A stretch of 38,479 nucleotides of DNA from an uncultured bacterium (lineage in GTDB: Bacteria > Hydrothermota > UBA3072): positions 1 through 38,479 of the forward strand of contig CAZALG010000002.1 of the NCBI GenBank assembly GCA_964485935.1. The letters run 5' to 3'. The translations under genes were made by a program, and so were the position numbers. The notes beneath the pieces were generated by a model. That model was not told the DNA's origin, searched no databases, and was given only the letters and a program-made list of their open reading frames with translations. Positions 21 to 35,790 of the stretch are shown one piece after another (the first letter of the stretch is position 1; every line of letters begins with the position of its first letter).

Positions 21-47
21 ACAACAAATTGCACAAATTCCACAAAT
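21..47 (+). repeat. micro-tandem array, 9 nt x3 (ACAACAAAT TGCACAAAT TCCACAAAT), CAC-form
   Basis: Direct reading; the ACAAAT core recurs at exact 9-nt spacing; intergenic. Confidence 0.7.
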
Positions 48-60
48 AACTTTTTAATTA

Positions 61-90
61 GCCACCGATTTTCACGAATTAGCACGGATT
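61..90 (+). repeat. micro-tandem array, 10 nt x3 (GCCACCGATT TTCACGAATT AGCACGGATT), CAC-form
   Basis: Direct reading; CAC..ATT recurs every 10 nt; it is the inverted partner of 151-180. Confidence 0.7.
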
Positions 91-114
91 GCTCAACTAT
101 CCATCTCTAAACAC

Positions 115-136
115 TTTTTTGTTTTTAAACAAAAAA
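115..136. repeat. AT-rich palindrome TTTTTTGTTT-tt-AAACAAAAAA
   Basis: The 10-nt arms are exact reverse complements. It sits midway between the inverted arrays 61-90 and 151-180. Confidence 0.6.
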
Positions 137-150
137 AATCGATTTTTTTG

Positions 151-180
151 ATCAGTGTTTATCTACCTTCATCCGTGGCC
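151..180 (-). repeat. micro-tandem array, 10 nt x3 (ATCAGTGTTT ATCTACCTTC ATCCGTGGCC), GTG-form
   Basis: ATC recurs with a 10-nt period, with a GTG core in the first and third units (middle unit degenerate). Shares the 13-mer ATCAGTGTTTATC with 32425-32437. Confidence 0.6.
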
Positions 181-234
181 ATTTAGTTTTTTCGTGTGTT
201 TTTTTTTAGTACAAATTTAAAAGGGGGTGTGGGG

Positions 235-262
235 TTTCGTGTATTTAGTGTGTTTCGTGGTT
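235..262 (-). repeat. micro-tandem array, 9 nt x3 ending in GTGGTT (TTTCGTG TATTTAGTG TGTTTCGTGGTT), preceded by the G-rich complement of the C-box (223-234)
   Basis: Direct reading; 242-262 matches 29248-29268 at 20/21 positions. Confidence 0.75.
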
Positions 263-280
263 AAAAAAAAACAAATAAAG

Positions 281-312
281 AATCTTACGTCAATCTTGTG
301 TAATCTGTGGTT
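281..312 (-). repeat. micro-tandem array, 10 nt x3 ending in GTGGTT (AATCTTACGT CAATCTTGTG TAATCTGTGGTT)
   Basis: Direct reading; 289-306 is the exact reverse complement of 19648-19665 (18 nt). Confidence 0.75.
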
Positions 313-332
313 AAATTTTTGCTTTAAAAAGA

Positions 333-360
333 TTGCGAATTTCGATTTATATACTATAAT
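333..360 (+). promoter_or_regulatory. sigma70-like promoter for birA (TTGCGA-N16-TATAAT)
   Basis: -35 at 333-338 and a perfect -10 at 355-360. AGGAG at 369-373 and ATG at 380 follow. Confidence 0.55.
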
Positions 361-1069: not shown

Positions 1070-1175
1070 GACTAAAAACAAAAACCTCCCCACCAAATTA
1101 ATCTCACACGAAGACACAAAAAAAAAGAGAAATTATGTTGTTTCCCCAACTCCACCCCAATTTTTACACATATAA

Positions 1176-1926: not shown

Positions 1927-3033
1927 CTATTTAGCTGTTAAAACAGAAATAAGCTTGCGATTGGGAGCGCCATTCCCATCTAAAACAGGGAAATCGCCTT
2001 TATAACACCAGTGACAATAAGCGATATTGTTGGAATTAAAAATATCGCAAACATCTTTATACCAGCGCAGAGCAATCTCATCAGGAATAGTAGGATAAAC
2101 ACCAAACTCTCCGCAATACAAAGGTAAATTCTTCTCCTTTGCGACTTCTATAGCGGGAGACATTATTTTTGCCAGAGTGTCTTTTGTAAAATATCCATTA
2201 GCATACTCTCTCATAGACTCAACTGTCTTTTCCGAAAACTCCTTATAATGTGCTGTATCGATAACTTGACCCGGATAATTTACTTCTCCTTTATATTCGG
2301 CTACGGGGGACCACGGTGCCAAATGATGAGTAAGCGCCATAGGATTATAAAAATGAAAACTTAGAATGATATTCCTATCATTCTCTGGAATTCTTAGATC
2401 GGGAAAAGTCGAAGCAATCTGCCATTTATTTGAGCCAACCACTATTTTCCTCTCCGGCTCATTTATTCTGACTTCCGCGACAATTTTTTCAATTATATTA
2501 TTCCAATCCTCGGGGTCATCCGCTACAGCTTCATTTAAAATTTCATAAGCTACCATGCTGTTTGGATATTCTTTCAATTCTATAGAGAGTTGTCGCCACA
2601 AATCGATTAGCTTTTCCTGTTCAGCGGGCTCGGTCCATAAAGGATTCGTTTCAGCAATAAAATGATGGGAACGGATAATATGCAAATCCACAATTACCCT
2701 CAAATTTGCCGCAAGAGCCCAATTGATTGCATTATGCAGTAGCTTGAACGCTTCTTTTTCTTTATTCCCATCTTCATCCCACATCTGTTCTTCATCGATT
2801 GGGATTCTGACATGGTCGAATCCCACGGAGGCGATTGTATCAAAATCAGCCTTTGTAATGTAATTTTTTCTTTCTTCTCCTCTCTTATCGCTCTGTGACA
2901 ACCAGTGACTGACATTAACACCTGTTCTTATTTTAAATTCTCCTGTTGTTTCATCCGCCCTAATATTTGAGGTACACATTAAAGAAAACAATCCAATAAT
3001 TACAAAAAGAATAAATTCTAAATTATTATGCAT
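1927..3033 (-). CDS. glycoside hydrolase family 5 (endoglucanase/mannanase-like), secreted
   Basis: EILNEA (acid/base NE) and CGEFG (nucleophile) motifs at GH5 spacing. Start placed at the ATG (MHNN...) 7 nt after GGGAGG rather than the TTG given in the ORF track. Confidence 0.8.
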   Translation of the reverse strand: MHNNLEFILFVIIGLFSLMCTSNIRADETTGEFKIRTGVNVSHWLSQSDKRGEERKNYITKADFDTIASVGFDHVRIPIDEEQMWDEDGNKEKEAFKLLHNAINWALAANLRVIVDLHIIRSHHFIAETNPLWTEPAEQEKLIDLWRQLSIELKEYPNSMVAYEILNEAVADDPEDWNNIIEKIVAEVRINEPERKIVVGSNKWQIASTFPDLRIPENDRNIILSFHFYNPMALTHHLAPWSPVAEYKGEVNYPGQVIDTAHYKEFSEKTVESMREYANGYFTKDTLAKIMSPAIEVAKEKNLPLYCGEFGVYPTIPDEIALRWYKDVCDIFNSNNIAYCHWCYKGDFPVLDGNGAPNRKLISVLTAK

Positions 3034-3184
3034 TATTATCCCTCCCAATATTTCTGTTTTTACAATCTGGCTAATAAAATCTATCTATAATAACCCATAT
3101 GTCAAGTTAAATTTTGTTCTGCCTACCATTATTTTATTAATTACGTCAGCAAGAATCAGAGGGGATACCTGACCAGTGAAAGTA

Positions 3185-3213
3185 TTGACAGAATTGTGCG
3201 CTATGATTATACT
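3185..3213 (+). promoter_or_regulatory. sigma70-like promoter (TTGACA-N17-TATACT)
   Basis: Perfect -35 at 3185-3190 and -10 at 3208-3213, upstream of the 3286 gene. Confidence 0.55.
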
Positions 3214-3285
3214 TTACAGGCGGATATTAAAACTGAAAAGCGTTTGAATTGCTTAAAGTACGAATACTAAAAAAAGGAGATGCAT

Positions 3286-3894
3286 ATGTCAAAGAAAAGA
3301 TTTTCCAAACTGGCTATTTTGTTCCTAACATTTCTTTTATCGAAATCTCTTTTTCTGATAGGAGGTGAACGCCAGGGGTTTATCTGCACCGTTAACCTGG
3401 GTTATGGATTTACCAAATATCCGGAGAAAATGCAGTACTGGAGTTCAGCAGAATCTTCTGAGGATAAAATCAAAGGGGGAATCTCGATGATTGGCAAAAT
3501 AGGTTATGCCCCAAATAATCATTTGATGATTCTTCTTATTTCACCTTCGGTTTACTTCAGAAAAGAAGTAGATTCTGATAAGAAAATAATAGATAATATG
3601 TTATTCGCTCTGGGTATCAGTTACTATTTGAATGAATTTCATCCCTCCGTCTATTTCGACGTAGCTGTAGGTCTCGCTATGTGGTGGTTACCTTATGAAA
3701 CTGAAGGAAATATAGAAGATTTAGATATCCATTTGGGTATGGGAGGAACTTTAGGGGTAGGCTATGAATTTACTCACAGATGGAGTATAGAAAGCAATTT
3801 TCACTATAACCGCTTCAGCTTCAATCGAAATAATGTCGATATAACAGCGAATACTCTTTCCTGTTCGATTGTATTAAGGTATATATTTTATTAA
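3286..3894 (+). CDS. outer-membrane beta-barrel (OmpA-like barrel / porin family) protein
   Basis: Signal peptide, alternating Gly/aromatic strands, C-terminal ...LRYIFY. ATG at 3286 sits 6 nt after GGAG. Confidence 0.5.
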   Translation: MSKKRFSKLAILFLTFLLSKSLFLIGGERQGFICTVNLGYGFTKYPEKMQYWSSAESSEDKIKGGISMIGKIGYAPNNHLMILLISPSVYFRKEVDSDKKIIDNMLFALGISYYLNEFHPSVYFDVAVGLAMWWLPYETEGNIEDLDIHLGMGGTLGVGYEFTHRWSIESNFHYNRFSFNRNNVDITANTLSCSIVLRYIFY

Positions 3895-3956
3895 AATGAT
3901 AATCTTAGCTTCCGTTTTTGTTTTGTGTATATAAGAAAGAGCTTTATCATTAAAAG

Positions 3957-6212
3957 ATGTTTTTGTTTATTTATTTAATCTTAAGTGCTGGTACATACAA
4001 AGTTGTAATGGGTAAAGTATTTGACGCAATCTCAAAAGAACCTCTGCCCATGGTCAACATTGTGGTTGAAGGAACCGAAATGGGTACTACTACAGACAAC
4101 GATGGATATTACAGCATAATACTCCCCGATACACTAAAAAAAGTCAAACTTGTTTACTCTATGATGGGATATAAAAAAGTTGAGAGAGAGAGATTTTTTT
4201 TCGGCAAGGATTACGTAAAGGAAGATATAGCGATGCGAATAACCACTTTGAAATCGCAGGGTATATTGGTATCCGCAAGAAAGGAAAGATTTAAGGAATC
4301 AGCAACCATTACACCCGTTTCTTTGTCAACAGAAGACCTACTAATTCTTCCTTCTCTTTATGAAGGAGATTTAATGCGTACGTTAGAGGCTCTTCCAGGA
4401 ATCACAAAAGCTTCCGATCACACAACTGAAGTGGCGGTAAGAGGAGGAAGCCCAGACCAAAATCTGATTTTACTCGATAATATACCAATATTAAAACCAT
4501 TTCATTTAGGCGGCAATTTTTCCGCTTTTAACCTTAACGCAATTAAAAACATTGAATTGTATAAAAGTGGAATTCCGGTGGAATATGACGCATCTCTTTC
4601 TTCTGTTCTAGATGTTAAAACAAAAGGAGTGAATCGAGACATAAAAGGACTTAATGGTATTTTTTCCCTGGGACTTTTATCTGCCGGAGCAACTATTGGC
4701 GGTCCTGTGCCCTATCTAAATACGAATTTTCTCTTTACCGTCAGGAGAACTTATTACGACAAAATAATCCCAGAGGAAATGCCTTACTATTTCTATGATG
4801 GATATTTACATATTGAAAGTGATATAACTGACAGGTGGAATGCTATTTTAAGTGCTTATAGTAGTAGGGATTTCTATGATTTGAGGGATGAGGAAAATGA
4901 AGAAGTACAAATTATAGGGCTGGATTGGGATAATAAGGCCTTAGGACTAAATACATTTTATGCTGGAAGTGATGAATCTTTACTTCATTTTTCAATCGGG
5001 TGGAGTAAACATAGTTTTCATTTTAGTTTGATGGATACCATTTATGTTACAAACGGTACCATCGATGCTGTAACTGTTGGGACTGACTATACTCGTGCAT
5101 TCGGAGGGCATAAAGTGAAGTCTGGATTAAAGGAAGAGTATCGCCCTTTTAAATATGACATTAGTATGGATATGGGTATAAATTATGAATACCAGAATAT
5201 ATGGAGCAACAGAGTAATGGGTTTTATCGAAGACGAATTTTCTCCTAAAAAAGACTTGCTTTTCTCCGGGGGAATATCTTTAACACATTACTATTCTCAA
5301 ATTGAAGATTTCAACCAGAGTGAAAACGAATTGTTTGTATCTTACAGGTTGTCTGCAAAATATTTTTTAAATGAAATAAAAGCTCTTACAGTCTCTTTTG
5401 GTAATTACCATCAATATGAAGTTCCTTTAATTCCCGGAGAATCAGTGAGTGGAGGTACGAGTTCTATCTTTTACTATTTAGTTCCCCTTGGTGGAGAATA
5501 CTACCCTGAAGAAGCCCAGCATGTAAATCTTGGTTACGAAGGCTGGTTGAACGAGTCCTTCTATTTTTCACTTGAAGGGTACTACAGAATTTATAATAGA
5601 TTGTATAAAATGAGAGAGGAGTCCGAAATCGAGATCGAAAACGCTAACGATTTCTACAGAACGATGTTTGATGAAAACGAAGGTGACGCCTATGGTATGG
5701 ATTTTTTGTTAAAAAAAGAGATAGGAAAAGTAAGAGGTTGGTTTTCTTACACATTCCTTAAATCGCTTATAAAATCTGACAAAGGGTATTATCCTTCGAT
5801 ATGGGACCGAACCCACAATCTGTATTTGGTACTTTTTGCTATTCTTCCTAAAGAATGGGAAATCGGTATTCAGTTTGCTTTCTCAACAGGTAATCCATTT
5901 ACCCCCACCCTTTGCAGATACCTCTATAGAAATCCAGCCACACCTCATGACAATGATGATACCGGTTGGATGGAGCTGCAAGGAGAAAAAAACTCGGTCA
6001 GGTTTCCCTCTTATCTGCGTTTAGATATCAGCGCCACCAAGACCTTTCACTTTGGTAATAATGAAGCGGATCTTAAAATTGGCTTATACAACGCCCTGAA
6101 TCGTGAAAATGTGGTATTCTATTACTATGATTATGACGAGGAACCACCTGTTAAAGAAACTGTCGGCATGGTTCCTCTTTTACCGGCTCTTGAAGTCATC
6201 TATAGATTCTAA
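3957..6212 (+). CDS. TonB-dependent receptor with N-terminal carboxypeptidase-regulatory-like domain
   Basis: GKVFD...PLPMVNIVVEGT..GTTTDNDGYYSI (CarboxypepD_reg-like), plug-like VAVRGGSPDQNLILLDNIPI, long beta-barrel, terminal aromatic ...VIYRF. Confidence 0.7.
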   Translation: MFLFIYLILSAGTYKVVMGKVFDAISKEPLPMVNIVVEGTEMGTTTDNDGYYSIILPDTLKKVKLVYSMMGYKKVERERFFFGKDYVKEDIAMRITTLKSQGILVSARKERFKESATITPVSLSTEDLLILPSLYEGDLMRTLEALPGITKASDHTTEVAVRGGSPDQNLILLDNIPILKPFHLGGNFSAFNLNAIKNIELYKSGIPVEYDASLSSVLDVKTKGVNRDIKGLNGIFSLGLLSAGATIGGPVPYLNTNFLFTVRRTYYDKIIPEEMPYYFYDGYLHIESDITDRWNAILSAYSSRDFYDLRDEENEEVQIIGLDWDNKALGLNTFYAGSDESLLHFSIGWSKHSFHFSLMDTIYVTNGTIDAVTVGTDYTRAFGGHKVKSGLKEEYRPFKYDISMDMGINYEYQNIWSNRVMGFIEDEFSPKKDLLFSGGISLTHYYSQIEDFNQSENELFVSYRLSAKYFLNEIKALTVSFGNYHQYEVPLIPGESVSGGTSSIFYYLVPLGGEYYPEEAQHVNLGYEGWLNESFYFSLEGYYRIYNRLYKMREESEIEIENANDFYRTMFDENEGDAYGMDFLLKKEIGKVRGWFSYTFLKSLIKSDKGYYPSIWDRTHNLYLVLFAILPKEWEIGIQFAFSTGNPFTPTLCRYLYRNPATPHDNDDTGWMELQGEKNSVRFPSYLRLDISATKTFHFGNNEADLKIGLYNALNRENVVFYYYDYDEEPPVKETVGMVPLLPALEVIYRF

Positions 6213-6225
6213 AGGAGGATTGGTC

Positions 6226-6969
6226 TTGAGATGTAATTTTATACTCACACTCTTTTTAACTTCCTTTTTATTTGTTTCCTGCGAAAGCGTCACGGAAGTC
6301 CCTTTCGAGCACAAGTACTTAATCTATCTGGTTCTTAGGCCGAATATGAAATTTCAAAAAGCTTATGTGGATTCAACCTATAAGTTGACATCTACTCTTT
6401 TAGAAGGCTTTAAAGGTATATCAGACGCAGAAATATTCGCAATTGATGAGGAGCAAGACACTTTTAAATTCCGTGAGTCGGATACGATCGGTTTATACTA
6501 CAGTGATGATTCCCTGTGGGTAAAATATAGTAACCAATATATTATTCAATTAAACGTTGAAGGGCATCAAATAGAAGAAGAAATAACTGTTCCAGACTCT
6601 CTTTTTATATATTCCCCTTCCAATGGAGACACAATCTCTCTGGATGATCCTGAAATTGTTTACTGGAACAGCTGTGAAGGGTTTTTTGATAACATGTATA
6701 CTGCTCGTGTTTTTTTCGAAGGAGAATTAGACTCTTTTGGTTTTTCTTTGACAACCCAAGATACGTCTCTGGACGTTTTATCAGCCAGATATCTATTCCC
6801 CAATGTTGATACTTTTTATACCTTAGCAGTCATGGCTATGGATGAAAACTGTTTCAAAGCTGATAAAGCCAACATTAACTTTGATTACGACCAGATAAGT
6901 GCGGATTTTGCAATAGGGGTAATCGGCGCAACCGTTTTCGATACGATCAAGGTCTGGGTTACCGAGTAA
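6226..6969 (+). CDS. DUF4249-like lipoprotein partner of the TonB-dependent receptor
   Basis: Lipobox FLFVSC. TTG start 7 nt after AAGGAGG (6212-6218). Placement directly after a CarboxypepD_reg-type receptor is the typical DUF4249 context. Confidence 0.45.
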   Translation: MRCNFILTLFLTSFLFVSCESVTEVPFEHKYLIYLVLRPNMKFQKAYVDSTYKLTSTLLEGFKGISDAEIFAIDEEQDTFKFRESDTIGLYYSDDSLWVKYSNQYIIQLNVEGHQIEEEITVPDSLFIYSPSNGDTISLDDPEIVYWNSCEGFFDNMYTARVFFEGELDSFGFSLTTQDTSLDVLSARYLFPNVDTFYTLAVMAMDENCFKADKANINFDYDQISADFAIGVIGATVFDTIKVWVTE

Positions 6970-7906
6970 GGTTACTTTCAATATAACCAGCCTTCATATA
7001 ACTCTTATAAATAATAAGTAAAAGAGCCAATCTTTCCTGAACCCGAAGGGTAAAAAGCGGAAGAATCTTTTGTAACCCAAGCGCATAAGGAATAAACGAA
7101 TGAGTATTTTTTACCAACAAAACCCCTTTATCTCTTAAATTAATAGTTTGGTTATAAATCTCCCTCACAAGATTTATATCGATTTTTGAGTAATTTCCGT
7201 GTCCGGGTAGAATCAACTCGGGTGAGATTTTCAAAATCTTCTTCAAGGAAGAAATTGCGTCGTCGATATCGGAAGACGGCACATTCAATACCGCCGGCCG
7301 CTTAAAAGAAAAGGTCGCTATAAGGTCGCCTGTGATAAGTGCAGAATCAAGAGAAAAGCCAACTTCATCGAGTGTATGACCGGGAAGAAAAAGAACTTTG
7401 ATTCCATATCGAATTTCCCCATCAGAAAAACAATCATCAACTCTCACAGCATGACTACCTATCGAAAGAAATTTTCCATAAAATTTAACCAGATAACGAA
7501 CCAGAGCTTCAATTCTTTTCCTTTTTTCTACATTTGCAGGATATAATCTCTTCAAGATCTCGCCATTTACCTTCTCACTTTTAATAAGACCACGAATAGG
7601 AGGCTCCATTTCAAGAAAATTTTTTGCTATTGGATGGCAAACAATTTTTATTTGTTTCTCTTGAAGCAGGTAATAAGCTAACCCCGTATGGTCAGGATGG
7701 TTATGCGTAAACCATATTTCATCGATATTTTTTACTTCTATTCCGGCTTCTCTTAACAAAGGTTTAAACGCCCTTATTTTCATAACCGGATTATAGCCAG
7801 GATCTACCAGTATATTCACCTCTCCCTTTATTAGAGTTGTGTTGGACGAGGGAACCTTCCTTGAATAGAAATATATTTTATCGTTAACTTTTGTTACTTT
7901 ATTCAC
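6959..7906 (-). CDS. MBL-fold metallo-hydrolase
   Basis: HNHPDHTG (HxHxDH) motif; GTG start; 11-nt convergent overlap with the previous gene. Confidence 0.8.
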   Translation of the reverse strand: MNKVTKVNDKIYFYSRKVPSSNTTLIKGEVNILVDPGYNPVMKIRAFKPLLREAGIEVKNIDEIWFTHNHPDHTGLAYYLLQEKQIKIVCHPIAKNFLEMEPPIRGLIKSEKVNGEILKRLYPANVEKRKRIEALVRYLVKFYGKFLSIGSHAVRVDDCFSDGEIRYGIKVLFLPGHTLDEVGFSLDSALITGDLIATFSFKRPAVLNVPSSDIDDAISSLKKILKISPELILPGHGNYSKIDINLVREIYNQTINLRDKGVLLVKNTHSFIPYALGLQKILPLFTLRVQERLALLLIIYKSYMKAGYIESNLTR

Positions 7907-7946: not shown

Positions 7947-7970
7947 CCTTCAAAAAACTAAACTGTAATT

Positions 7971-7998
7971 AACCACAAAGATCACAAAGGACACAAAG
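7971..7998 (+). repeat. micro-tandem array AACCACAAAG ATCACAAAG GACACAAAG, followed by C-box CCCCTCCACCCC (7999-8010)
   Basis: Direct reading; inverted partner at 8132-8159 (24/28 identical). Confidence 0.85.
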
Positions 7999-8131
7999 CC
8001 CCTCCACCCCAACTTTAATTTATTTCTTCAAAAACTCTTCCAAACTAAAGAAAATCCCAGAAAGGATTAAACAAGATTAACGGTATTTTTATTTAAGTAA
8101 CAAATTATTTATTTAAATAAAAAATTAAAAT

Positions 8132-8159
8132 CTTTGTGCTCTTTGTGTACTTTGTGGTT
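8132..8159 (-). repeat. micro-tandem array (reverse complement AACCACAAAG TACACAAAG AGCACAAAG)
   Basis: Direct reading; the first 19 nt are identical to 19682-19700. Confidence 0.85.
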
Positions 8160-8270
8160 CAAATTTTTTAAACTTATGCTCTTGATATTTTACATTATTT
8201 AAATAAATTTAAATATTAAATTTATTTAAAATTATCGAGTATAAATCTAACCTCAGAGGGAGATAAATAT

Positions 8271-11081: not shown

Positions 11082-11786
11082 TTATTGTCCTACAACAAGC
11101 TTTACATTATCTCCAAAAGTAACTTCTACACCCGGCGCTGGAAACTGTTGGATGACAACATCTATTTCCCCTTCTGTTCTCTTGACCTCTGATAATACAA
11201 GACCATACTTCAATATCTCGCCCTGAGCTTCTTCCAAGTTCATGCCATTTAGATTCAGCATCAAAAAAACCTTTCTTTTTTCGGTACCTATGAAAATGGT
11301 AAGCATACTTCCTAGAGCTATACTATCTTCAATCGAAGGTTTCGTCTTGACAACCCTGCCATCTAAACTTTTATCTCTCACGGGATAATTTATGAAAACT
11401 CTATTTGTTATCCCGTAACTATCAAGAGAATCTACAGCAATCTTCCTGGAAAGCCCAACAATGTCAGGTAAGACAATTTTTTTAGGACCCCTACTAACAA
11501 CAAGTTCAATAACACTTCCGATTTTTACATCTTCCTTTGCCGGGGGTTCGGTATTTACAATAAGACCTTTAGCCACCTCACTTGAGTAGACACTGTCCGA
11601 AACGACGTACCTTAAATCAAGTGTAGAGAGAAAACTTTTTGTCTTTTCCAGACTCATATGTTTAAGATACGGGACTTCTATGGTCTTACTGTGCTTAACT
11701 ATAACAGGCATTAAAAAATAGAAAACTATAAAACCAAAAAAGAAAGATCCTGCAACAATAGACACATAAGTGACAATTTTCTTCAT
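11082..11786 (-). CDS. membrane-anchored PASTA-domain protein (3 PASTA repeats, no kinase or PBP domain)
   Basis: N-terminal TM helix, then three ~65-aa repeats each starting (V/L)P..xG and ending ...V.L.VS.G. Confidence 0.7.
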   Translation of the reverse strand: MKKIVTYVSIVAGSFFFGFIVFYFLMPVIVKHSKTIEVPYLKHMSLEKTKSFLSTLDLRYVVSDSVYSSEVAKGLIVNTEPPAKEDVKIGSVIELVVSRGPKKIVLPDIVGLSRKIAVDSLDSYGITNRVFINYPVRDKSLDGRVVKTKPSIEDSIALGSMLTIFIGTEKRKVFLMLNLNGMNLEEAQGEILKYGLVLSEVKRTEGEIDVVIQQFPAPGVEVTFGDNVKLVVGQ

Positions 11787-12544
11787 CAGCGACCCTCACG
11801 ATTTACGGTTATATCGACCTTAGAGCCTTTTTCAATCATTACCCCAGGCTCTGGACTTTGTCTGATAATAATATCAAAAGCATGCTCTCCGCTTGTGATG
11901 TAACTCTTCCTCCCCAAGTCAAGGCCACTTTCTTCCAAGAGTATCCGGGCCCTATATTCACTCTTTCCTCTGAGGTTAGGAACAGCTACTTTACCTCCAC
12001 CCGAAGAGACAATTAATTTTATAGGAACTGCTTCCGTAACTTTCTGACCCGGTTCAGGTATCGTTTGCAAAACAACATCCTTGGCTTTTTCTGATTCTTG
12101 TCTTTCAACCACCCCCACACTGAGACCTCTCTCAGACAGATATACTTTAGCCTGGTTGACATCAAAACCAATCACAGAAGGTACAACTATTTCCTCGGTT
12201 TCGTCTATGTTCGCCTCTGGACCTTTACTCAAAACAATTCTCACAGTTGTACCTTCTTCTACTGTTTCTCCTGCAGTTGGCTTCTGGTAAATAACTCTAT
12301 TTTTCTTTGTTGTTGGATGAAATTTTTCATCCTCTACAATTATTTTTAATCCTTTCTCGTCCAGAATCATCTCGGCTTTATTTAAATCTAAATTTTCGAC
12401 ATCCGGGACTTCTACCATTTTTGATTCCCCGGATACTACGTTAGGAACAAAATACACGAAAGTAAAACAAACTAAACCGGAAACTACCATTGAAGTTAGA
12501 AAAGATATCCAAAAAACCTTTGCAGAACTCTGCTGATAATACAT
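11786..12544 (-). CDS. membrane-anchored PASTA-domain protein (3 PASTA repeats, no kinase or PBP domain)
   Basis: TM helix plus three PASTA-like repeats (VEVPDVENLDLNKA..., VVPSVIGFDVNQA..., VAVPNLRGKSEYRA...); AGGAGG RBS. Confidence 0.7.
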   Translation of the reverse strand: MYYQQSSAKVFWISFLTSMVVSGLVCFTFVYFVPNVVSGESKMVEVPDVENLDLNKAEMILDEKGLKIIVEDEKFHPTTKKNRVIYQKPTAGETVEEGTTVRIVLSKGPEANIDETEEIVVPSVIGFDVNQAKVYLSERGLSVGVVERQESEKAKDVVLQTIPEPGQKVTEAVPIKLIVSSGGGKVAVPNLRGKSEYRARILLEESGLDLGRKSYITSGEHAFDIIIRQSPEPGVMIEKGSKVDITVNREGR

Positions 12545-12549
12545 AATGA

Positions 12550-13806
12550 CTACCTCCTTATAAGTGCCGCGCCGAATCCCCCATCATAAAAGGGATAGCC
12601 GGGAAGATTCCGAATAAAGGGATCCTCCTTGCATGCGCATTTAACAATAAAATCAGGATTTTCTTCTAAAAACCATTGTACCTGTTTTTCGTTTTCCTGC
12701 GGAAGAATAGAACATGTTGAATATACCAAAACTCCGTTCTTATTCAAATTCTCAGCAGCAGATTTTAACATCTCTCTCTGTAAAGCAACAAGCCTGTTTA
12801 AAGATGTAAGGTTAAGGTTCCATCTGAGTTCGCCTTTTTTCCCCATAACACCCGTGCCAGAACAAGGTACATCCAAAAGTATCCTATCCGCTTGGGCAAC
12901 CCTAAAATATTTTACATCACCCTTAATCGGATAAACGCTCTTTATACCCAATCGCTCGGCATTGCTGACCACCATATAGAGATCTTTTTTATCAACAGAC
13001 AACACGATTCCCTTATCTCCCATAATTTCAGCTATACCGGTACTCTTTGTACCGGGAGCAGAACATAAATCGAGTATAATTTCGTCCTCTTCGGCAGAAA
13101 GAATCTCCGTGTTCATTGTCTGAGTAACACCCTGAATTTGAAAATAACCTCTTTTAAAGCTATTACTATAAACAACACCACTCTCTGTCAAGAGATTATA
13201 TTCTCTCCCCTCTATTTTTTTCGCATCAAAACCTTCTTCTTTTAAATTTTCAAGCACTTCCCCGGGTGTAGACTTCAATCTGTTAACTCGAATCGTTGTA
13301 ACAGGTGGACGGTTACTCTCTCTTAATATATTTTCCGTTTTCTCGCCATATTCATCCATCAATAGGCGAACCAAAAACTCCGGGAAAGAGTAGAACGTAG
13401 ACAAATATTTTAAAGGTTCCTCAGGATAAGTAACAGGATGGAGATTTCTAAGGACAGCATTTACAAGGGATGCAGTCCCGTTATGCCCGTATTTTTTTGC
13501 AAGATTTACAGATTCATTTACCACAGCGTGATCTGGGTCGCTACTTACGAGCAGCCCATAAGCTCCTTCTCTCAGTATATTTCTAATAGGCAAAGGCAAA
13601 CTTTTAAGTTTTTTATTCTTTAAATGTTTTTCCAGAATGTAATCAAGTCTCTTAACCATCTTAACTGTCCCATAATAATAATCATAGGCTTTCTGTATAT
13701 CCTTATCTACTTTTTCTCCTTTCCGTAATTCTGTAAAATTTTTTAAAGTCTTTCTCCCGCTTTCAAACTCGATTAAAGCCTTTAAAGCCAATTCGCGTCC
13801 ATTCAT
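12550..13806 (-). CDS. rsmB: 16S rRNA (cytosine967-C5)-methyltransferase
   Basis: NusB-like N-terminal domain, DLCSAPGTKS SAM motif, DVPCSGTG and YSTCS catalytic Cys motifs. Confidence 0.85.
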   Translation of the reverse strand: MNGRELALKALIEFESGRKTLKNFTELRKGEKVDKDIQKAYDYYYGTVKMVKRLDYILEKHLKNKKLKSLPLPIRNILREGAYGLLVSSDPDHAVVNESVNLAKKYGHNGTASLVNAVLRNLHPVTYPEEPLKYLSTFYSFPEFLVRLLMDEYGEKTENILRESNRPPVTTIRVNRLKSTPGEVLENLKEEGFDAKKIEGREYNLLTESGVVYSNSFKRGYFQIQGVTQTMNTEILSAEEDEIILDLCSAPGTKSTGIAEIMGDKGIVLSVDKKDLYMVVSNAERLGIKSVYPIKGDVKYFRVAQADRILLDVPCSGTGVMGKKGELRWNLNLTSLNRLVALQREMLKSAAENLNKNGVLVYSTCSILPQENEKQVQWFLEENPDFIVKCACKEDPFIRNLPGYPFYDGGFGAALIRR

Positions 13807-18907: not shown

Positions 18908-18932
18908 ATTTTTCTCCTTTTATTTTCTACCA

Positions 18933-19464: not shown

Positions 19465-19485
19465 ATAAATTTTTTCGTCAACAAG

Positions 19486-19559
19486 TACGCCTGAGAGGAT
19501 TCGAACCTCCAACCTGCGGATCCGTAGTCCGCCGCTCTTTCCAGTTGAGCTACAGGCGT
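19486..19559 (-). tRNA. tRNA-Arg (anticodon ACG), no encoded CCA
   Basis: Folded by hand: acceptor ACGCCTG/CAGGCGT, D arm GCTC..GAGC, anticodon stem GCGGA/TCCGC, loop CTACGGA, T arm GGAGGTTCGAATCCTCT. Confidence 0.9.
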
Positions 19560-19571
19560 AATATAATTTAA

Positions 19572-19599
19572 AATATACAATAAACCCTTTTACTGTCAA
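19572..19599 (-). promoter_or_regulatory. sigma70-like promoter for the tRNA-Arg/tadA unit (TTGACA-N16-TATATT)
   Basis: Minus strand: -35 at 19599..19594, -10 at 19577..19572, about 12 nt before the mature tRNA 5' end. Confidence 0.55.
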
Positions 19600-19640: not shown

Positions 19641-19671
19641 AAACACGAGATTACACAAGATTGACACTGAT
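19641..19671 (+). repeat. micro-tandem array, 10 nt x3 (AAACACGAGATT ACACAAGATT GACACTGAT)
   Basis: Direct reading; 18-mer shared with 289-306 (reverse complement). Confidence 0.75.
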
Positions 19672-19681
19672 AAAAAATTTA

Positions 19682-19709
19682 AACCACAAAGTACACAAAG
19701 GTCAGAAAG
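19682..19709 (+). repeat. micro-tandem array AACCACAAAG TACACAAAG GTCAGAAAG
   Basis: Direct reading; 19-nt identity with the reverse complement of 8141-8159. Confidence 0.8.
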
Positions 19710-23869: not shown

Positions 23870-24133
23870 TTAAAGATCCAACTCCAAGCCAAAACTTTTA
23901 ATGAATTTTTTTAATAGACTTTTATTAAGCTGATAGAAAACCCATCTTTTATACCGCCTCTTTAAAACCAAACCCGATTCTTCAAGCCTTCTAAGATGAT
24001 GGGAAACAGTAGGCTGGGAAAGTTTTAGCGCTTCAACAATTTTAGAAACATTTTTTTCCCCTTGATTCAGTATCTTCAATATTTTCAACCTGGTACCATC
24101 CGCCAACAAATAAAGAATACTATTTATATCCAT
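23870..24133 (-). CDS. ArsR/SmtB-family transcriptional regulator
   Basis: LADGTRLKILKIL...NVSKIVEALKLSQPTVSHHLRRLEESGLV winged-HTH signature. ATG 4 nt after AGGAGG. Confidence 0.8.
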   Translation of the reverse strand: MDINSILYLLADGTRLKILKILNQGEKNVSKIVEALKLSQPTVSHHLRRLEESGLVLKRRYKRWVFYQLNKSLLKKFIKSFGLELDL

Positions 24134-24419: not shown

Positions 24420-24422
24420 GAG

Positions 24423-24536
24423 TATCTCTTCGGGGTTGGGTGTAATTCCCAACCGGCGGTGAAAGCCCGCGAGGAGCAATCCTGATTCGGTGGAATTCCG
24501 AAGCCGACGGTGAAAGTCCGGATGAGAGAAGGGAAT
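24423..24536 (+). promoter_or_regulatory. FMN riboswitch (RFN element) aptamer
   Basis: CTCTTCGGGGTTGGGTGTAATTCCCAACCGGCGGTGAAAGCCCGCGAG...GGTGGAATTCCGAAGCCGACGGTGAAAGTCCGGATGAGAGAAGGG closely follows the conserved RFN core. It lies directly upstream of ribD. Confidence 0.9.
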
Positions 24537-24545
24537 TATATTCAG

Positions 24546-29247: not shown

Positions 29248-29268
29248 TATTTAGTGTATTTCGTGGTT
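29248..29268 (-). repeat. GTG-form micro-array TATTTAGTG TATTTCGTGGTT
   Basis: 20/21 identical to 242-262. Confidence 0.8.
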
Positions 29269-29282
29269 GAATAAAATGTTTT

Positions 29283-29311
29283 TTTCTGTGTGTTCTCTGT
29301 AACTTTGTGGC
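29283..29311 (-). repeat. GTG-form micro-array TTTCTGTG TGTTCTCTGT AACTTTGTGGC
   Basis: Direct reading; 10-nt period. Confidence 0.6.
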
Positions 29312-29346
29312 AAAAGAAATTTTTTAACTTTGATTTGTATTTTTTC

Positions 29347-32024: not shown

Positions 32025-32361
32025 TTCTGAAAGGAGAGTACTCTTTTTTATTATTGCTGTACTTCTTGTAGGAAGCTTAACGGGGTTTTTTCATTCTAAT
32101 CCTGAAGAAAAAACAGAAAAACTTACATCCTTCCCTATAAGTATTAATTCTGCAACCGCTGAAGAATTAGTTCTTCTTCCGGGTGTAGGAGATGTAATAG
32201 CAAAAAGAATATTGGAATATAGAAGCAAAAATAATGGTTTTAAAAGCAAAGATGAAATTATGAGAGTTAAAGGTATAGGTAAAGTTAAGTTTGAAAAAAT
32301 AAAGGACAAAATTTGTGTTGAAAATCCAGAGCAAACAAAAAAAGAAAATAGCCACAGATGA
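32014..32361 (+). CDS. comEA: ComEA-family helix-hairpin-helix DNA-binding protein
   Basis: TM anchor, then INSATAEELVLLPGVGDVIAKRILEYR...VKGIGKVKFEKIK (two HhH motifs). Confidence 0.75.
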   Translation: MLSDSERRVLFFIIAVLLVGSLTGFFHSNPEEKTEKLTSFPISINSATAEELVLLPGVGDVIAKRILEYRSKNNGFKSKDEIMRVKGIGKVKFEKIKDKICVENPEQTKKENSHR

Positions 32362-32380
32362 ACACAGATAAAAACAGATT
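32351..32380 (+). repeat. micro-tandem array GCCACAGATG AACACAGATA AAAACAGATT
   Basis: Exact 10-nt period. The comEA TGA stop (32359-32361) lies inside unit 1. Confidence 0.8.
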
Positions 32381-32424
32381 AAAAAGTTTTGTTGTTTTAA
32401 ATAAAAAAATTGGGATGGGATGGT

Positions 32425-32454
32425 ATCAGTGTTTATCAGTGAAAATCAGTGGTT
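32425..32454 (-). repeat. micro-tandem array ATCAGTGTTT ATCAGTGAAA ATCAGTGGTT
   Basis: Exact 10-nt period. It ends 7 nt before the GGAGG of the next gene. Confidence 0.85.
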
Positions 32455-32471
32455 AATTATTGGAGGTAAAT

Positions 32472-32954: not shown

Positions 32955-32968
32955 ATGTAATATGAAAT

Positions 32969-33421
32969 ATGAAAAAAGAAAAAGGCACAGATATTTTAGA
33001 ATTTATAAGCAATATTATCTACGAAAAAAAGCAGGTTGAAGATTACGGCGTTTACCTTACAATAGGTAAGGTTTTTCGATTCACAGGTAAGGCAGATATC
33101 GACTTCGGAGACAGCGAATACAAAAAAAGCGAAATACAGAAGATAGAACCTGTGAAGCGGAAAGCGGAGGATAAATACGGTTGGTGGGAACTCACCGGTG
33201 GCGAATATTTAATAGAATTCAATGAAGAACTACAGGAAGTACTTCCTGATGCCAAATTAGTTATATTACAGCCCTCAGAAAGAATAACTTTAAACGGAGC
33301 TTTTCATGCAACGAAAGTGATCGAAAAAAAGGGGAAGATAAGATTAACTCTTTATGTGGGGAAAAACGGAATAAATATAAAAGAAAATGCGAGAATCAGC
33401 AAACTTATTGTGCTGGATTAA
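32969..33421 (+). CDS. hypothetical protein, possible degenerate dUTPase/dCTP-deaminase fold
   Basis: The overall pattern (L.IGKVF...IDF......L.GGEYLIEFNE...LP.DA...L.P...L..G......V...GKI.L.L...G.I.I..NARI..L) parallels dCTP-deaminase-like proteins, but the RSS and DxG(F/Y)xG catalytic motifs are absent. Confidence 0.3.
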   Translation: MKKEKGTDILEFISNIIYEKKQVEDYGVYLTIGKVFRFTGKADIDFGDSEYKKSEIQKIEPVKRKAEDKYGWWELTGGEYLIEFNEELQEVLPDAKLVILQPSERITLNGAFHATKVIEKKGKIRLTLYVGKNGINIKENARISKLIVLD

Positions 33422-33442
33422 CTTCAATCTTCAAGATACAGG

Positions 33443-33859
33443 ATGAAAAAAAGAGTTTTGTTTATATGTACGCACAATTCCGCTCGGTCACAAATGGCTG
33501 AAGGCTTGCTTAGTAGTTTGTTTGGTGAGCGATATGAAGTTTTCAGCGCGGGAACCGAACCCGGGGAAATTAATCCAAATTCAATAGAAGTAATGAAAGA
33601 GATAGGAATCGATATTTCTAATCATTATTCTAAAAACGTTAAAGATTTAATAAATGAAGATTTCGATTATGTTATAACTGTATGCGGCGGGGCCAAAGAA
33701 ACTTGCCCCTTTTCCCCAGGAGGAGGTCAGCAGTTACATAAAGGGTTCGAAGACTCATCCTCATTTTCGGGCAGCAAAGAAGAAGTACTGGGCAAATTCA
33801 GGAAAATTAGAGATAACTTAAAAGAATGGATCGAGGAGTTTTTCAATGGAAAAAGATAA
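33443..33859 (+). CDS. arsC: arsenate reductase, thioredoxin-coupled LMW-PTP type
   Basis: CTHNSARSQMAEG P-loop (Cx5R) plus the downstream Cys pair in VCGGAKETCP. Confidence 0.85.
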   Translation: MKKRVLFICTHNSARSQMAEGLLSSLFGERYEVFSAGTEPGEINPNSIEVMKEIGIDISNHYSKNVKDLINEDFDYVITVCGGAKETCPFSPGGGQQLHKGFEDSSSFSGSKEEVLGKFRKIRDNLKEWIEEFFNGKR

Positions 33860-34466
33860 AGCTTTAATAATAGTCGATATACAGAACGATTTCTGTCCGG
33901 GAGGAGCACTGGCAGTACCAGAAGGAGATAAAATAATACCCATAATAAATAAAATGTCCGGAAAATTTAAAAAAGCAGTTGCCACACAGGACTGGCACCC
34001 CGAAAGTCATAAGTCTTTTGCAGTAAATCATCCGGGTAACAAAGTTTACGATGTCATTGAATATAAAGGCATAGAACAGGTACTATGGCCGAAACATTGT
34101 GTGTCGGGAACTCCCGGTGCAGCATTTCATCCCGCCCTCGATACGGAAAACGTAGATTTAATTTTAAGGAAAGGAAGCAACCCCGAAATTGATTCTTATT
34201 CGGCATTCCAGGAAAATGACAAAAAAACCCTGACCGGTCTTGAAGGATATCTAAAATTTTTAAATGTAAAGAAAACTTACTTCTGCGGACTTGCCCTTGA
34301 TTACTGCGTTTTTTACTCAGCGATGGATTCAAAACGATTAGGATTCGAGACATATGTCATAATAGATGCCACAAAGGGAATCGATTCACCCGAAGGAAAT
34401 ATTGATAAAGTCTTAAGAGAAATGAAAGAATCTGATATAAAAATAATTAAATCCTCGGATTTTTAG
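33846..34466 (+). CDS. pncA: nicotinamidase/pyrazinamidase
   Basis: LIIVDIQNDFCPGGALAV, QDWHP, and catalytic Cys in GLALDYCV. Confidence 0.85.
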   Translation: MEKDKALIIVDIQNDFCPGGALAVPEGDKIIPIINKMSGKFKKAVATQDWHPESHKSFAVNHPGNKVYDVIEYKGIEQVLWPKHCVSGTPGAAFHPALDTENVDLILRKGSNPEIDSYSAFQENDKKTLTGLEGYLKFLNVKKTYFCGLALDYCVFYSAMDSKRLGFETYVIIDATKGIDSPEGNIDKVLREMKESDIKIIKSSDF

Positions 34467-34474
34467 GAGGCAGG

Positions 34475-35674
34475 ATGTTACCAGTTGAAATTAGTTCAGG
34501 TATATATTGGATAGGTGTAGACGACCGCACAACGGATTTGTTTGAAGGTCTCTGGCCTATAACAAGGGAAGGCGTCTCATATAATTCTTACCTGATAAGA
34601 GATAAGAAGAAAGCTATAATAGACATGACTAAATCTATCAAGGGAGACGAATTCTTTGACAATATTAATGAGATAGCTGCTATAAAAGATATAAATTATA
34701 TTATCATAAATCATATGGAACCCGATCACTCAGGAATACTTAGAACTTTCCGAAAAATTTCTCCTAACGTAAAAATTTTAGGCTCACAGAAAACAAAAGA
34801 AATGCTCCAAGATTTTTATGGTATAAAAGACAATGTGGAAGTCGTGAAGGACGGCGATGAAATTTCACTGGGAGAAAAGACTCTGAGATTTTTTTCTACC
34901 CCAATGGTTCACTGGCCGGAGACAATTATGACTTACGAGGTTTCTAACAAGATTCTTTTCTCCTGCGATGCCTTTGGAAGTTTTGGAGTACTTGGAGGAA
35001 GTATTTTCGACGATGAATGCAAAAATCTTAACTTTTATATGGATGAAGCAGTCCGTTATTACGTTAACATTGTTGCCAAATTCAGCAAAATGGTTCGGGG
35101 GGCCATAGATAAACTAAAAAGTGTTCCTGTCGAGGTAATCGCCCCTTCCCATGGAAGAGTATGGAGAAAAGATCCAGGCATGATAGTAGAACTATATAAG
35201 AAACTTGCGAGTCTTGAGAGTGAGCAAGCCGATTCCGGAGTTACTTTAATATACGGTTCGATGTACGGAAATACAGAAAACATGATGAACGCGGTAGCTC
35301 AAGGTATTTCCGGGGCAGGTATTCCTCTTGAAATATTCGACGTTTCCAGAACTCACGTAAGTTACATCCTACCTTCCCTATGGACAAAAAGTGGTGTAAT
35401 GATTGGGGCGCCGACTTACGAGGCAGGTCTTTTCCCAACTATGGGAGACGTACTTCGCATGGCAGAACTTAAGCGCATAACAAATAAAAAATTCGCGATG
35501 TTTGGTAGTTACGGGTGGAGTGGCGGAGCTTTAAAAGAAATAAAAAACATAGTCGAACCTGTAAAATGGGAGCTTACCGATTCTTTCGAGTTTAAAGGAG
35601 GCCCTTCAAAAGAGGAACTCAAAAAAGGAGAAGAATTCGGCAGAAAATTTGGCAAACTACTTAAAAATAATTAA
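34475..35674 (+). CDS. fprA: FprA-family A-type flavodiiron protein
   Basis: HMEPDHSG (HxExDH di-iron site) in an MBL-like domain, followed by a flavodoxin-like domain (LIYGSMYGNTE). Confidence 0.85.
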   Translation: MLPVEISSGIYWIGVDDRTTDLFEGLWPITREGVSYNSYLIRDKKKAIIDMTKSIKGDEFFDNINEIAAIKDINYIIINHMEPDHSGILRTFRKISPNVKILGSQKTKEMLQDFYGIKDNVEVVKDGDEISLGEKTLRFFSTPMVHWPETIMTYEVSNKILFSCDAFGSFGVLGGSIFDDECKNLNFYMDEAVRYYVNIVAKFSKMVRGAIDKLKSVPVEVIAPSHGRVWRKDPGMIVELYKKLASLESEQADSGVTLIYGSMYGNTENMMNAVAQGISGAGIPLEIFDVSRTHVSYILPSLWTKSGVMIGAPTYEAGLFPTMGDVLRMAELKRITNKKFAMFGSYGWSGGALKEIKNIVEPVKWELTDSFEFKGGPSKEELKKGEEFGRKFGKLLKNN

Positions 35675-35720
35675 CCACAGAGGCCACAGAGAAAAACAAA
35701 AAAACACAGAGAACACAGAG
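35673..35720 (+). repeat. micro-tandem array AACCACAGAG GCCACAGAG (A-rich linker) ACACAGAG AACACAGAG
   Basis: CACAGAG at 35676, 35685, 35705 and 35714. The fprA TAA stop (35672-35674) is part of the TTAACCAC anchor. Confidence 0.85.
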
Positions 35721-35755
35721 AAGCATTACACTTTTCCTTGTATAATTTTAAATTT

Positions 35756-35790
35756 GCAATTTACAATTTTCAATATCCAATTTACAATGA
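35756..35790 (+). repeat. strict 7-nt x5 array GCAATTT ACAATTT TCAATAT CCAATTT ACAATGA
   Basis: CAAT at 35757, 35764, 35771, 35778 and 35785. Confidence 0.8.

Follow-up and report, generated by a model that had tools for sequence, protein, structure and literature searches.

The 38,479-nt stretch of contig CAZALG010000002.1 from an uncultured Hydrothermota bacterium (assembly GCA_964485935.1), called the window here at its full length, contains genes for birA, a metallo-beta-lactamase-type (MBL) hydrolase, an epimerase, maf, a ComEA-like helix-hairpin-helix protein and an FprA-like flavodiiron protein. These labels had been given in a sequence-only reading of the same DNA and were consistent with the Pfam matches. 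Homologs of the epimerase and of FprA carry the name candidate division WOR-3. The gene map was based on the long open reading frames (ORFs), two tRNAs, a tadA gene between the tRNAs, a small arsR-like gene and a flavin mononucleotide (FMN) riboswitch; it left 3,128 nt outside genes, tRNAs and riboswitch, against 35 kb of coding DNA. Most long intergenic gaps of this streamlined WOR-3 genome are occupied by short tandem arrays in which the triplet CAC returns every 9-10 nt, and these arrays are the subject of the present analysis.

Arrays were called on both strands as at least two units with a CAC each 9-10 nt and at least three of the four bases after CAC identical. This rule gave 12 arrays in the window, of which 11 were intergenic and the twelfth (32353-32369) spanned the stop codon of the ComEA-like gene. 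The confinement to intergenic DNA claimed in the sequence-only reading was upheld when coding and intergenic densities were compared with dinucleotide shuffles: between genes, 11 arrays were observed against 0.05 ± 0.22 expected (maximum 1 in 300 shuffles), and coding DNA contained none against 0.58 expected. A stricter pattern (CAC-N6-7-CAC-N6-7-CAC) matched six times, always between genes, and the main arrays were also called independently by Tandem Repeats Finder. They are scattered over about 10 gaps and adjoin unrelated genes. Every array that had been quoted as an example was recovered at its place, but the total of more than 20 shrank to about 16, that is, 12 by the rule and about four degenerate arrays outside it (281-312, about 1103-1122, 29285-29312 and about 24250). 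The CAC, described as invariant, is not strictly so in distal units. The single long gap said to be free of arrays was confirmed at 3049-3279 (previously 3034-3285).

A phased module shared by Bacteria and Archaea

The array at 7969-7998 is an exact match to the pattern AACCACAAAGNNCACAAAGNNCACAAAG, which was searched for in one genome per species (596 Gb). With 24 specified bases, the pattern would by simple arithmetic be expected about 0.004 times by chance; this genome-scale scan, which had been suggested as a check, found it at at least 116 genome loci in about 15 phyla of Bacteria and Archaea. Hosts among the matches listed included Nostocales (Calothrix NIES-4105 many times), Planctomycetota, Holophagaceae, Terriglobia, Anaerolineae, Desulfobacterales and other "delta" lineages, Bacteroidales, Verrucomicrobiota, Lentisphaeraceae, Nitrospirae, WOR-3, Stahlbacteria, Cloacimonadales, Sumerlaeota, Desantisbacteria, Endozoicomonas, Salinisphaera and Sedimenticola, as well as several genomes of the archaeon Methanothrix, in one of which an array adjoins a TBP gene. 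The cores stay A-rich across a host G+C content of about 35% to 66%. The arrays are a cross-domain repeat module of defined architecture, which lies between genes with its ACCAC end outward. A module of about 33 nt that occurs in cyanobacteria, planctomycetes, acidobacteria, Chloroflexota, Endozoicomonas and Methanothrix is, as far as the authors are aware, among the most widely shared non-coding repeat modules.

The pattern was absent from 5,426 E. coli genomes and gave one plasmid match and no phage match in the respective collections. Six matches were found in 2.9 million viral contigs, one of them a coding (PQR)3 repeat in the metagenome-assembled genome (MAG) of a giant virus. On these counts, phage or plasmid was rejected as the vector. 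No Rfam family matched any array at the gathering threshold or at E ≤ 5, and the open literature, searched by sequence string and by nonamer or 9-bp repeat terms, yielded no earlier description.

The anatomy was described from the loci of the cross-phylum pattern scan, unless stated otherwise. The basic module measures about 33 nt and consists of a T-K-AACCAC head followed by typically three direct units, in each of which a 7-nt core precedes a free spacer of 2-3 nt. The core is CAC-N-RAG in most phyla, and its tail varies more in this WOR-3 lineage. The consensus across loci is T-K-A-A-C-C-A-C-A-A-A-G-R-R-(CACAAAG-R-R)n, and the outer triplet is AAC more often than CAC, and CAC more often than TAC. 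Three units were counted in 143 arrays, four in 20 and two in 9, a distribution that the three-unit recruiting pattern biases towards three. The cores are spaced by about one helical turn (9-10 nt). When only three phased CACs were required and the recruiting arrays were left out, 83 triple-CAC matches had a period of 9, versus 5-23 at periods 7, 8, 11, 12 and 13. Neighboring units agreed at the four bases after CAC with frequencies of 0.60/0.75/0.80/0.78, and at the 2-nt spacer with only 0.39/0.40 (unbiased scan of related loci). The constancy of tails within an array, as originally described, was thus borne out for the cores. The proposed homogenization by slippage does not explain everything: the cores are uniform, but the spacers are near random and three units are strongly preferred. 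Two exceptions to the three-unit norm were seen: a Bacteroidales MAG has three tandem copies of the entire 33-nt arm (L030, 3670-3780), and Endozoicomonas atrinae contains a single array of nine units (L081, 4269-4360).

Many arrays are arranged in inverted pairs. A partner in inverted orientation lay within 250 nt of 47% of the arrays on the inner side versus 12% on the outer side, and a direct copy was found for 8%. The two arms usually point their ACCAC ends away from each other and enclose a loop of arbitrary sequence, mostly of 60 nt or less. The arms mismatch at 9% of core and 55% of spacer positions; the latter value indicates that they are not recent fold-back copies and that spacer complementarity is not selected, and fold-back duplication was rejected as the origin of most pairs. 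Pairs with matching cores fold as "beaded" hairpins (z = -3.3 to -12.5), whereas pairs with differing cores do not (z = -1.0). In the window, the arms at 7969-8161 bound a hairpin element of 193 nt that has no ORF and lies between two divergent promoters (fold z = -6.4), and those at 32351-32456 form a 106-nt element that fills a whole intra-operon gap (z = -3.75). The suggestion that the arrays are RNA elements forming beaded hairpins is physically possible for such pairs, but about half of the arrays lack a partner, cores can be mismatched and spacers are not compensatory, and a strict RNA hairpin was rejected as a general rule. The Calothrix copies share only about 35 nt, the array itself, and the loops within one planctomycete MAG are mutually unrelated.

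It is very improbable that the arrays were made in place, by templating through a telomerase-like reverse transcriptase (RT) or by replication slippage at a seed, and then fixed. Such an origin would suit arrays that are each homogeneous while their cores differ from array to array, as well as the differing unit numbers among relatives (see below). A precedent for RT-made tandem repeats of 9 nt in bacteria is provided by DRT10 (bioRxiv 10.1101/2025.10.16.682844), although the accessible part of that preprint describes protein-primed products and does not report their integration into the genome. Near-random spacers with exact cores are predicted neither by slippage nor by precise templating; the sharp three-unit preference, the fixed outer ACCAC terminus and the inverted partners also argue against generation in place, and Pfam scans of the flanking ORFs found no RT gene near the arrays.

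The arrays also affect annotation. In an Endozoicomonas sp. chromosome (L093), CAC arrays at 5230-5290 and 5480-5530 lie in frame inside a ManC-like (mannose-1-phosphate guanylyltransferase-like) ORF (...NHRDHKAHKEK...), and arrays elsewhere in this locus yield spurious ORFs with NHKEHKVHK-type peptides. These translations bear out the earlier suspicion about "hypothetical proteins" with NHKxHK repeats; both spurious ORFs of this type and in-frame gene insertions are caused by the arrays. At 2500-4090 of the same locus, an IS66-family element with a 501-aa transposase and its own terminal inverted repeats (taactattcagcacc) lies inside the loop of a CAC-array hairpin, and the insertion of other mobile DNA may be tolerated in array loops. 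IS66 was rejected as the autonomous partner of the arrays, since it has its own terminal repeats and sits within the loop of a hairpin element.

Gene boundaries, promoters and turnover among relatives

In other phyla, 74% of the arrays lay outside ORFs, although ORFs made up 84% of the DNA. The non-random orientation reported in the sequence-only reading, with the ACCAC end facing the adjacent gene, holds in the window and is general elsewhere: in 72 of 94 arrays of other phyla this end points towards the nearer gene (p = 2e-7). The ratio was 29:6 at starts and 43:16 at stops, and 47 of 59 solitary arrays showed the same orientation. Convergent gaps are over-represented and divergent gaps under-represented among array sites. 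An orientation that is mirror-symmetric about genes is as expected of an intergenic element with ACCAC as its outer ends, and these ends would abut genes because the elements occupy dispensable inter-operon DNA.

The predicted -35 and -10 hexamers lie outside the arrays, and three promoter-proximal arrays end 20-24 nt upstream of the -35 hexamer. This position and the helically phased cores are what would be expected of operator arrays for a global transcription factor or nucleoid protein on one DNA face upstream of promoters. Such a function, close to the binding sites for a global regulator or RNA polymerase-associated factor proposed at first, is nevertheless highly unlikely. Arrays also occur after stop codons and in intra-operon gaps, orthologous promoters of relatives have a different array or none, and the cores vary between arrays of one genome. 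Furthermore, the identical sequence is found beside unrelated neighbors in Archaea and in about 15 bacterial phyla among the matches listed. A fixed geometry between array and promoter was rejected as well, because the distances at the MBL promoter were 13, 23 and 24 nt (hand count) and some relatives have no array.

The turnover of the arrays was evident from orthologous loci (L123-L129 and L130-L133, with L043 and L044 from the pattern matches), whose proteins are about 96% to 82% identical. L123 aligns collinearly with the window at a nucleotide identity of 89-91%; the alignment is interrupted four times, at three array-bearing segments and at a 3.9-kb gene insertion. Positions 7949-8167, with the CACAAAG pair, are swapped in L123 for an unrelated 102-nt segment with a single CACGAAA-type array; 290 nt upstream of birA are replaced; and the array after birA has two decayed units in the window versus four intact units in L123. 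The conserved flanks resume at the predicted -35 hexamers in each case. L128 lacks an array ahead of birA, as does L126 ahead of the epimerase gene. The array at the fprA stop codon has 4, 4, 2, 2, 1 and 0-1 units in different relatives, the mosaic gap upstream of maf differs in each of the relatives compared, and the comEA-adk gap contains arrays in six of six relatives, in three to four structurally different mosaic versions. Between the window and L043, the array 3' of fprA is identical at 33 of 33 core positions and differs at 4 of 17 spacer positions (hand count). A 157-nt composite segment of the element upstream of birA, including the array at 235-262, recurs in another genomic setting, upstream of rtcB, in another WOR-3 MAG (L084), which speaks for dispersal. 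The arrays are dispensable, are exchanged at a rapid pace and mark hypervariable cassettes between genes that are useful for strain typing; they could also mislead promoter or terminator prediction. Compared with L043 and the window, L132 contains 2 kb of additional DNA downstream of fprA (11476-13131), which includes a Tricorn/PD40-like gene and a PemK-type toxin-antitoxin pair, with array-bearing DNA at its borders.

These comparisons also bear on the possibility that the arrays are host-beneficial boundary elements, that is, bidirectional terminators, insulators or RNA-processing or RNA-stabilizing stems under selection, for which mobility and the nuclease genes found in some loops (see below) would be secondary and the hairpins safe landing sites. 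The ACCAC end faces the nearer gene at starts and stops alike, convergent gaps are enriched and divergent gaps depleted, and cores are conserved over spacers both in orthologous arrays and between arms, all of which would fit such a role. The same applies to the comEA-adk site, to the high array density in a small genome, to the T-rich runs after many post-stop arrays, to the stable folding of paired arms and to the IS66 element within a hairpin loop. On the other hand, orthologous sites in close relatives are free of arrays while their promoters are unchanged, and other arrays have been exchanged for unrelated versions. About half of the arrays are solitary and base-pairing is impossible in some pairs, the distance to the MBL promoter varies, the phylogenetic distribution is patchy, with no copy in E. 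coli, and a terminator scan found no enrichment. Selection for a boundary function is considered unlikely, though it is a better candidate than an operator function or generation in place.

Cassettes with a GxxExxY nuclease gene

An all-versus-all BLAST of 166 small ORFs near arrays found no recurrent family. Pfam scans of 51 small and 95 larger array-flanking ORFs gave housekeeping genes, except for PDDEXK_3 (NCBIfam TIGR04256, "GxxExxY protein"), the sole recurrent family beside arrays, which was found twice. In L072, the GxxExxY gene lies between two inward-facing arms in the hisH-hisF gap, and in L018 it lies beside an array pair. In a reverse survey, metagenome contigs were scanned for relatives of these two GxxExxY proteins, and 80 loci were kept. 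An array of at least three units occurred within 250 nt of the GxxExxY gene in 33 of the 80 loci and elsewhere in one further locus only. Array density was 3.12/kb at 0-100 nt from the gene, 0.46/kb at 100-250 nt and 0.00-0.09/kb beyond. The ACCAC end was directed outward in 42 arrays versus 16, and the main layout consisted of an ACCAC-array, the gene and an inverted array. The median distance was 17.5 nt from the end of the left arm to the aligned start and 11 nt from the stop codon to the right arm; in the cassettes, the distance between arm and gene is 4-29 nt at the start codon and 1-21 nt at the stop codon, and the purine-rich tail of the left arm often reads as the ribosome-binding site of the GxxExxY gene. 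Among 69 loci with both flanks evaluable, arrays were two-sided in 13 and one-sided in 15. In these other organisms, the arrays are the terminal arms of a compact cassette with a GxxExxY nuclease gene, and the loop of the full-length form is this single small gene; the window holds only ORF-less versions.

Arm against arm, the ORF-bearing cassettes differ at 5.6% of core and 49% of spacer positions. The hisH-hisF cassette is stably inherited among planctomycetes, and its arms have changed in concert: both are of the CACAAAG type in L072, and both are of the CACGGAG type in L214.

The GxxExxY protein looks like an active nuclease, judging from its conserved residues and predicted structure. The PD-(D/E)XK catalytic triad (D81, E91 and K93) and the G-x-x-E-x-x-Y motif are invariant, and the AlphaFold model, from database proteins, is a confident PD-(D/E)XK fold (pLDDT 90.4, pTM 0.83). 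No relative by sequence was found among solved structures; the nearest folds, with weak similarity (E about 3e-3, TM 0.4-0.5), were Cas4 SSO0001, the AdnAB nuclease domain and lambda exonuclease. The family comprises at least 7,960 relatives at E ≤ 1e-10. In a survey of the superfamily, PDDEXK_3 was assigned no known function and showed multiple transfers between Bacteria and Archaea (PMC3424549), which matches the distribution of the arrays. The link to the arrays provides a testable hypothesis for this very large family.

The arrays of the window are probably the arms of miniature copies without an ORF, which belong to a horizontally spread family of selfish hairpin cassettes. Among the interpretations offered in the sequence-only reading, a non-autonomous, spreading repeat family is the best supported: the module occurs in about 15 phyla, it has been gained, lost and swapped among relatives, and it forms the arms of an ORF-bearing cassette. 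The copies in the window would be ORF-less derivatives of GxxExxY cassettes. Helical phasing of the cores suggests cooperative protein binding, for which a nuclease or a recombination partner is a better candidate than a transcription factor. A trans-acting protein may bind the phased cores cooperatively; the nuclease of the cassette or a recombinase would be the most plausible one, and it would pair both arms and lead to insertion, replacement or homing of the intervening DNA. Where arms match, their transcripts could pair and enclose the loop in a discontinuous stem, in the manner of rRNA intervening sequences, and effects on neighboring genes (termination, insulation or RNA processing) would be secondary. 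A more far-reaching proposal, put forward tentatively and with more doubt than confidence, is that the tri-nonamer arm is the recognition and pairing module of an unrecognized class of mobile elements that move between Bacteria and Archaea. Its sole gene would be the GxxExxY nuclease of about 130 aa, and it would home or transpose between intergenic hairpins, leaving thousands of ORF-less arms at operon boundaries. If such a minimal element of one nuclease and two arms were real, it would give a function to the PDDEXK_3 family and a clue to the movement of ORF-bearing rRNA intervening sequences; more generally, the nuclease link may bear on the spread of hairpin-bounded small-ORF elements of that kind.

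Several observations weigh against reading the window arrays as parts of selfish cassettes. Neither the window nor 283 kb of WOR-3 sequence yielded a GxxExxY gene, so that the nuclease is only a candidate partner here. The gene was present in only two of the 116 array loci listed, and 41 of the 69 evaluable GxxExxY genes had no strict array. No consistent target-site duplication was seen at the junctions inspected. The loops are unrelated between copies even in one genome, where copy-and-paste transposition of a master element predicts otherwise; the spacers also differ between copies, and recent identical copies are rare. Finally, the occupancy of the comEA-adk gap in all six relatives and the conservation of orthologous cores (P about 0.01, hand count) hint at some constraint in situ or use by the host.

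The closest known anatomy is that of the rRNA intervening sequence (IVS). In the IVS of Coxiella burnetii, a selfish element of 428 nt whose mechanism of spread is not known, a terminal stem of 28 bp encloses a single small ORF (S23p) (PMC4990558). Both elements have two terminal inverted repeats of similar length (arms of about 27-33 nt here) and enclose one small ORF, as in the GxxExxY cassettes, or nothing, as in the ORF-less forms of the window. Both are sporadic and horizontally transferred, and neither encodes an obvious transposase. Unlike the IVS, all CAC-array copies seen lie between protein-coding or tRNA genes and not in 16S or 23S rRNA helices, their arms consist of phased nonamer units with free spacers, and the ORF encodes a PD-(D/E)XK nuclease instead of S23p. 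In the tRNA-murJ gap of L132, an IVS-type four-helix-bundle gene (S23p-type, 23S_rRNA_IVP/bAvd) is flanked by inverted 8-nt micro-arrays, and CAC arrays occupy this gap in L133.

[quoted passage not shown] The IS607 transposase TnpA binds cooperatively to two to five helically phased 9-bp direct repeats near each end, and the resulting filaments pair the ends; the family occurs in Bacteria and Archaea and has neither classical terminal inverted repeats nor target duplication (PMC6188088). CAC arrays likewise contain multiple phased direct repeats of about 9 bp (2-4 units with a period of 9-10 nt), and as putative binding sites they have the geometry of the four 9-bp repeats on which the IS607 TnpA filaments form. 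However, no serine-recombinase tnpA or tnpB gene was found beside arrays in 146 flanking ORFs and about 0.9 Mb of array-bearing loci, and the loops hold nothing or a GxxExxY gene.

Repetitive extragenic palindromes (REP), their hairpin-forming doublets (REPINs) and the associated RAYT transposases are similar in that they are short extragenic repeats with hundreds of copies, often in inverted hairpin doublets, with a bias to gene 3' ends and a presumed mobilization in trans by a single-copy gene. The CAC arm, however, is a direct-repeat array with a TKAACCAC head and not a GTAG/CGTC-tagged palindrome. Its loops are not conserved between copies, its distribution reaches Archaea, and the candidate partner is a PD-(D/E)XK nuclease and not a HUH Y1 enzyme. 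No RAYT (IS200-like Y1) gene was seen by Pfam among the ORFs flanking arrays in the loci analyzed. Miniature inverted-repeat transposable elements (such as Correia, Nezha and Chunjie) are also small, non-coding, intergenic, strain-variable and bounded by inverted repeats. Terminal inverted repeats are present here, both in the 47% of arrays with inner-side partners and in the window pairs at 7969-8161 and 32351-32456, but the CAC-array copies have no conserved interior and no cognate insertion sequence or transposase beside them.

Short tandemly repeated repetitive (STRR) sequences have a heptanucleotide unit and are restricted to (heterocystous) cyanobacteria. The CAC arrays have a period of 9-10 nt and occur in about 15 phyla among the matches listed. 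TAACTGA direct repeats are known from Beggiatoaceae, Cyanobacteria and Bacteroidetes (PMC4679880). STRR and TAACTGA repeats resemble the CAC arrays as short intergenic tandem direct repeats of 2-6 copies in distant phyla with an unknown mechanism of transfer, but the CAC unit combines a conserved core with a free spacer and a fixed outer terminus, and the arrays are inversely paired and tied to a specific gene family. Units of 9-10 nt with spacers of 2-3 nt are also unlike CRISPR, with its repeats of 24-48 nt and unique spacers of similar length. Plasmid iterons and DnaA boxes cluster at a rep gene or at oriC, whereas the arrays are dispersed and also found in Archaea; only the outermost CAC unit resembles the DnaA box TTWTNCACA (TTAACCACA, one mismatch). 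DnaA boxes, integron attC sites, type III restriction sites, Rho utilization (rut) sites and the consensus pause site of RNA polymerase, as generally described, were rejected for their architecture or for the presence of the arrays in Archaea.

Individual arrays and adjoining features of the window

The arrays and arms of the window are compiled in Table 1. The two arrays at 281-312 and 19641-19671 have GATTACACAAGATTGAC in common.

Table 1. Positions of CAC arrays, arms and an adjoining box in the 38,479-nt window.
Position	Strand	Feature	Basis or remark
21-47	+	CACAAAT array, one degenerate and two exact units; outer left arm of composite element upstream of birA	Sequence; rule match 32-47
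61-90	+	CACGAATT-type array, three 10-nt units, starts gCCAC	Sequence; rule match 73-89
224-236	-	C-rich box adjoining array 235-262; GGGGGTGTGGGG as read on + strand	Sequence
235-262	-	Array AACCACGAAA/CACTAAA/CACGAAA	Pattern and rule
281-312	-	Array AACCACAGATTA/CACAAGATTGA and degenerate unit	Ends 20 nt upstream of birA -35 hexamer
1103-1122	+	Decayed two-unit array CACACGAAGA CACAAAAA after birA	L123 ortholog has four intact units
7969-7998	+	Left arm TTAACCACAAAG-AT-CACAAAG-GA-CACAAAG, then C-rich box CCCCTCCACCCC	Pattern and rule
8132-8161	-	Right arm AACCACAAAG-TA-CACAAAG-AG-CACAAAG	Sequence
19641-19671	+	CAC(G/A)AGATT-type array, three units of 10-11 nt, between T9SS-type gene and tRNA-Arg	Sequence and rule
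19680-19709	+	Array AAACCACAAAG-TA-CACAAAG-GT-CAGAAAG, third unit degenerate	Sequence and rule
29248-29270	-	Two-unit array AACCACGAAATACACTAAA upstream of maf	Sequence and rule
29285-29312	-	Degenerate array GCCACAAAGTT ACAGAGAA CACACAGAA	Sequence only; below formal rule
32351-32380	+	Left arm CCACAGAT-GAA-CACAGAT-AAAA-ACAGAT	Starts within last codons of ComEA-like gene; rule
32425-32456	-	Right arm AACCACTGAT x3	Ends 3 nt before ribosome-binding site of adenosine-kinase gene
35671-35720	+	Composite array TAACCACAGAG-GC-CACAGAG, A-rich spacer, CACAGAG-AA-CACAGAG	Begins at fprA stop codon

Many WOR-3 arrays have a C-rich box (CCCCTCCACCCC or CCCCACACCCC-like) immediately behind their inner end, and a T/A-rich run is usually next. 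Such boxes are found in the window at 7999-8010, 1-13, 224-236 (G-rich on the + strand), 1086-1100 and 1147-1160, and also in L040, L044, L051, L069, L084 and L092. The box looks like an extension of the arm that is specific to this lineage, and none was seen in the other phyla. The WOR-3 gaps with CAC arrays also hold a second family of micro-arrays with an 8-nt period (TCAAGGNN, TCGAACCC/TTGAACCC and CTAAAACC/CTAAGACC), located at 18600-19130 and 15340-15390 of L132, 7590-7640 of L043 and 6735-6775 of L123.

The 3.9-kb insertion relative to the close relative L123 corresponds to positions 3115-6991, between the GH5 cellulase and MBL hydrolase genes. Its three genes encode an outer membrane protein (OMP) beta-barrel, a TonB-dependent-receptor-like protein (CarboxypepD_reg and Plug) and an unannotated ORF, and the array-free long gap at 3049-3279 is its left edge. 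At about 23.8-24.6 kb, gene orientation flips from the - to the + strand and the cumulative GC skew has its minimum, which may reflect coding-strand bias alone or an origin-like switch. This gap holds the arsR-like gene (about 23880-24133, - strand) and the FMN riboswitch (24422-24537) ahead of the rib operon. The tadA-like deaminase gene, with a PCxxC motif, lies at 19020-19484 on the - strand between tRNA-Ser and tRNA-Arg; the mechanical ORF at 19006-19599 over-extends it and overlaps both tRNAs. Upstream of an unannotated gene (35892-37262), positions 35744-35788 contain a 7-nt/21-nt tandem repeat (TTTACAA / caatttgcaatttacaatttt), which is kept in the relatives L130 and L132 and, unlike the CAC arrays, behaves as a conserved regulatory region.

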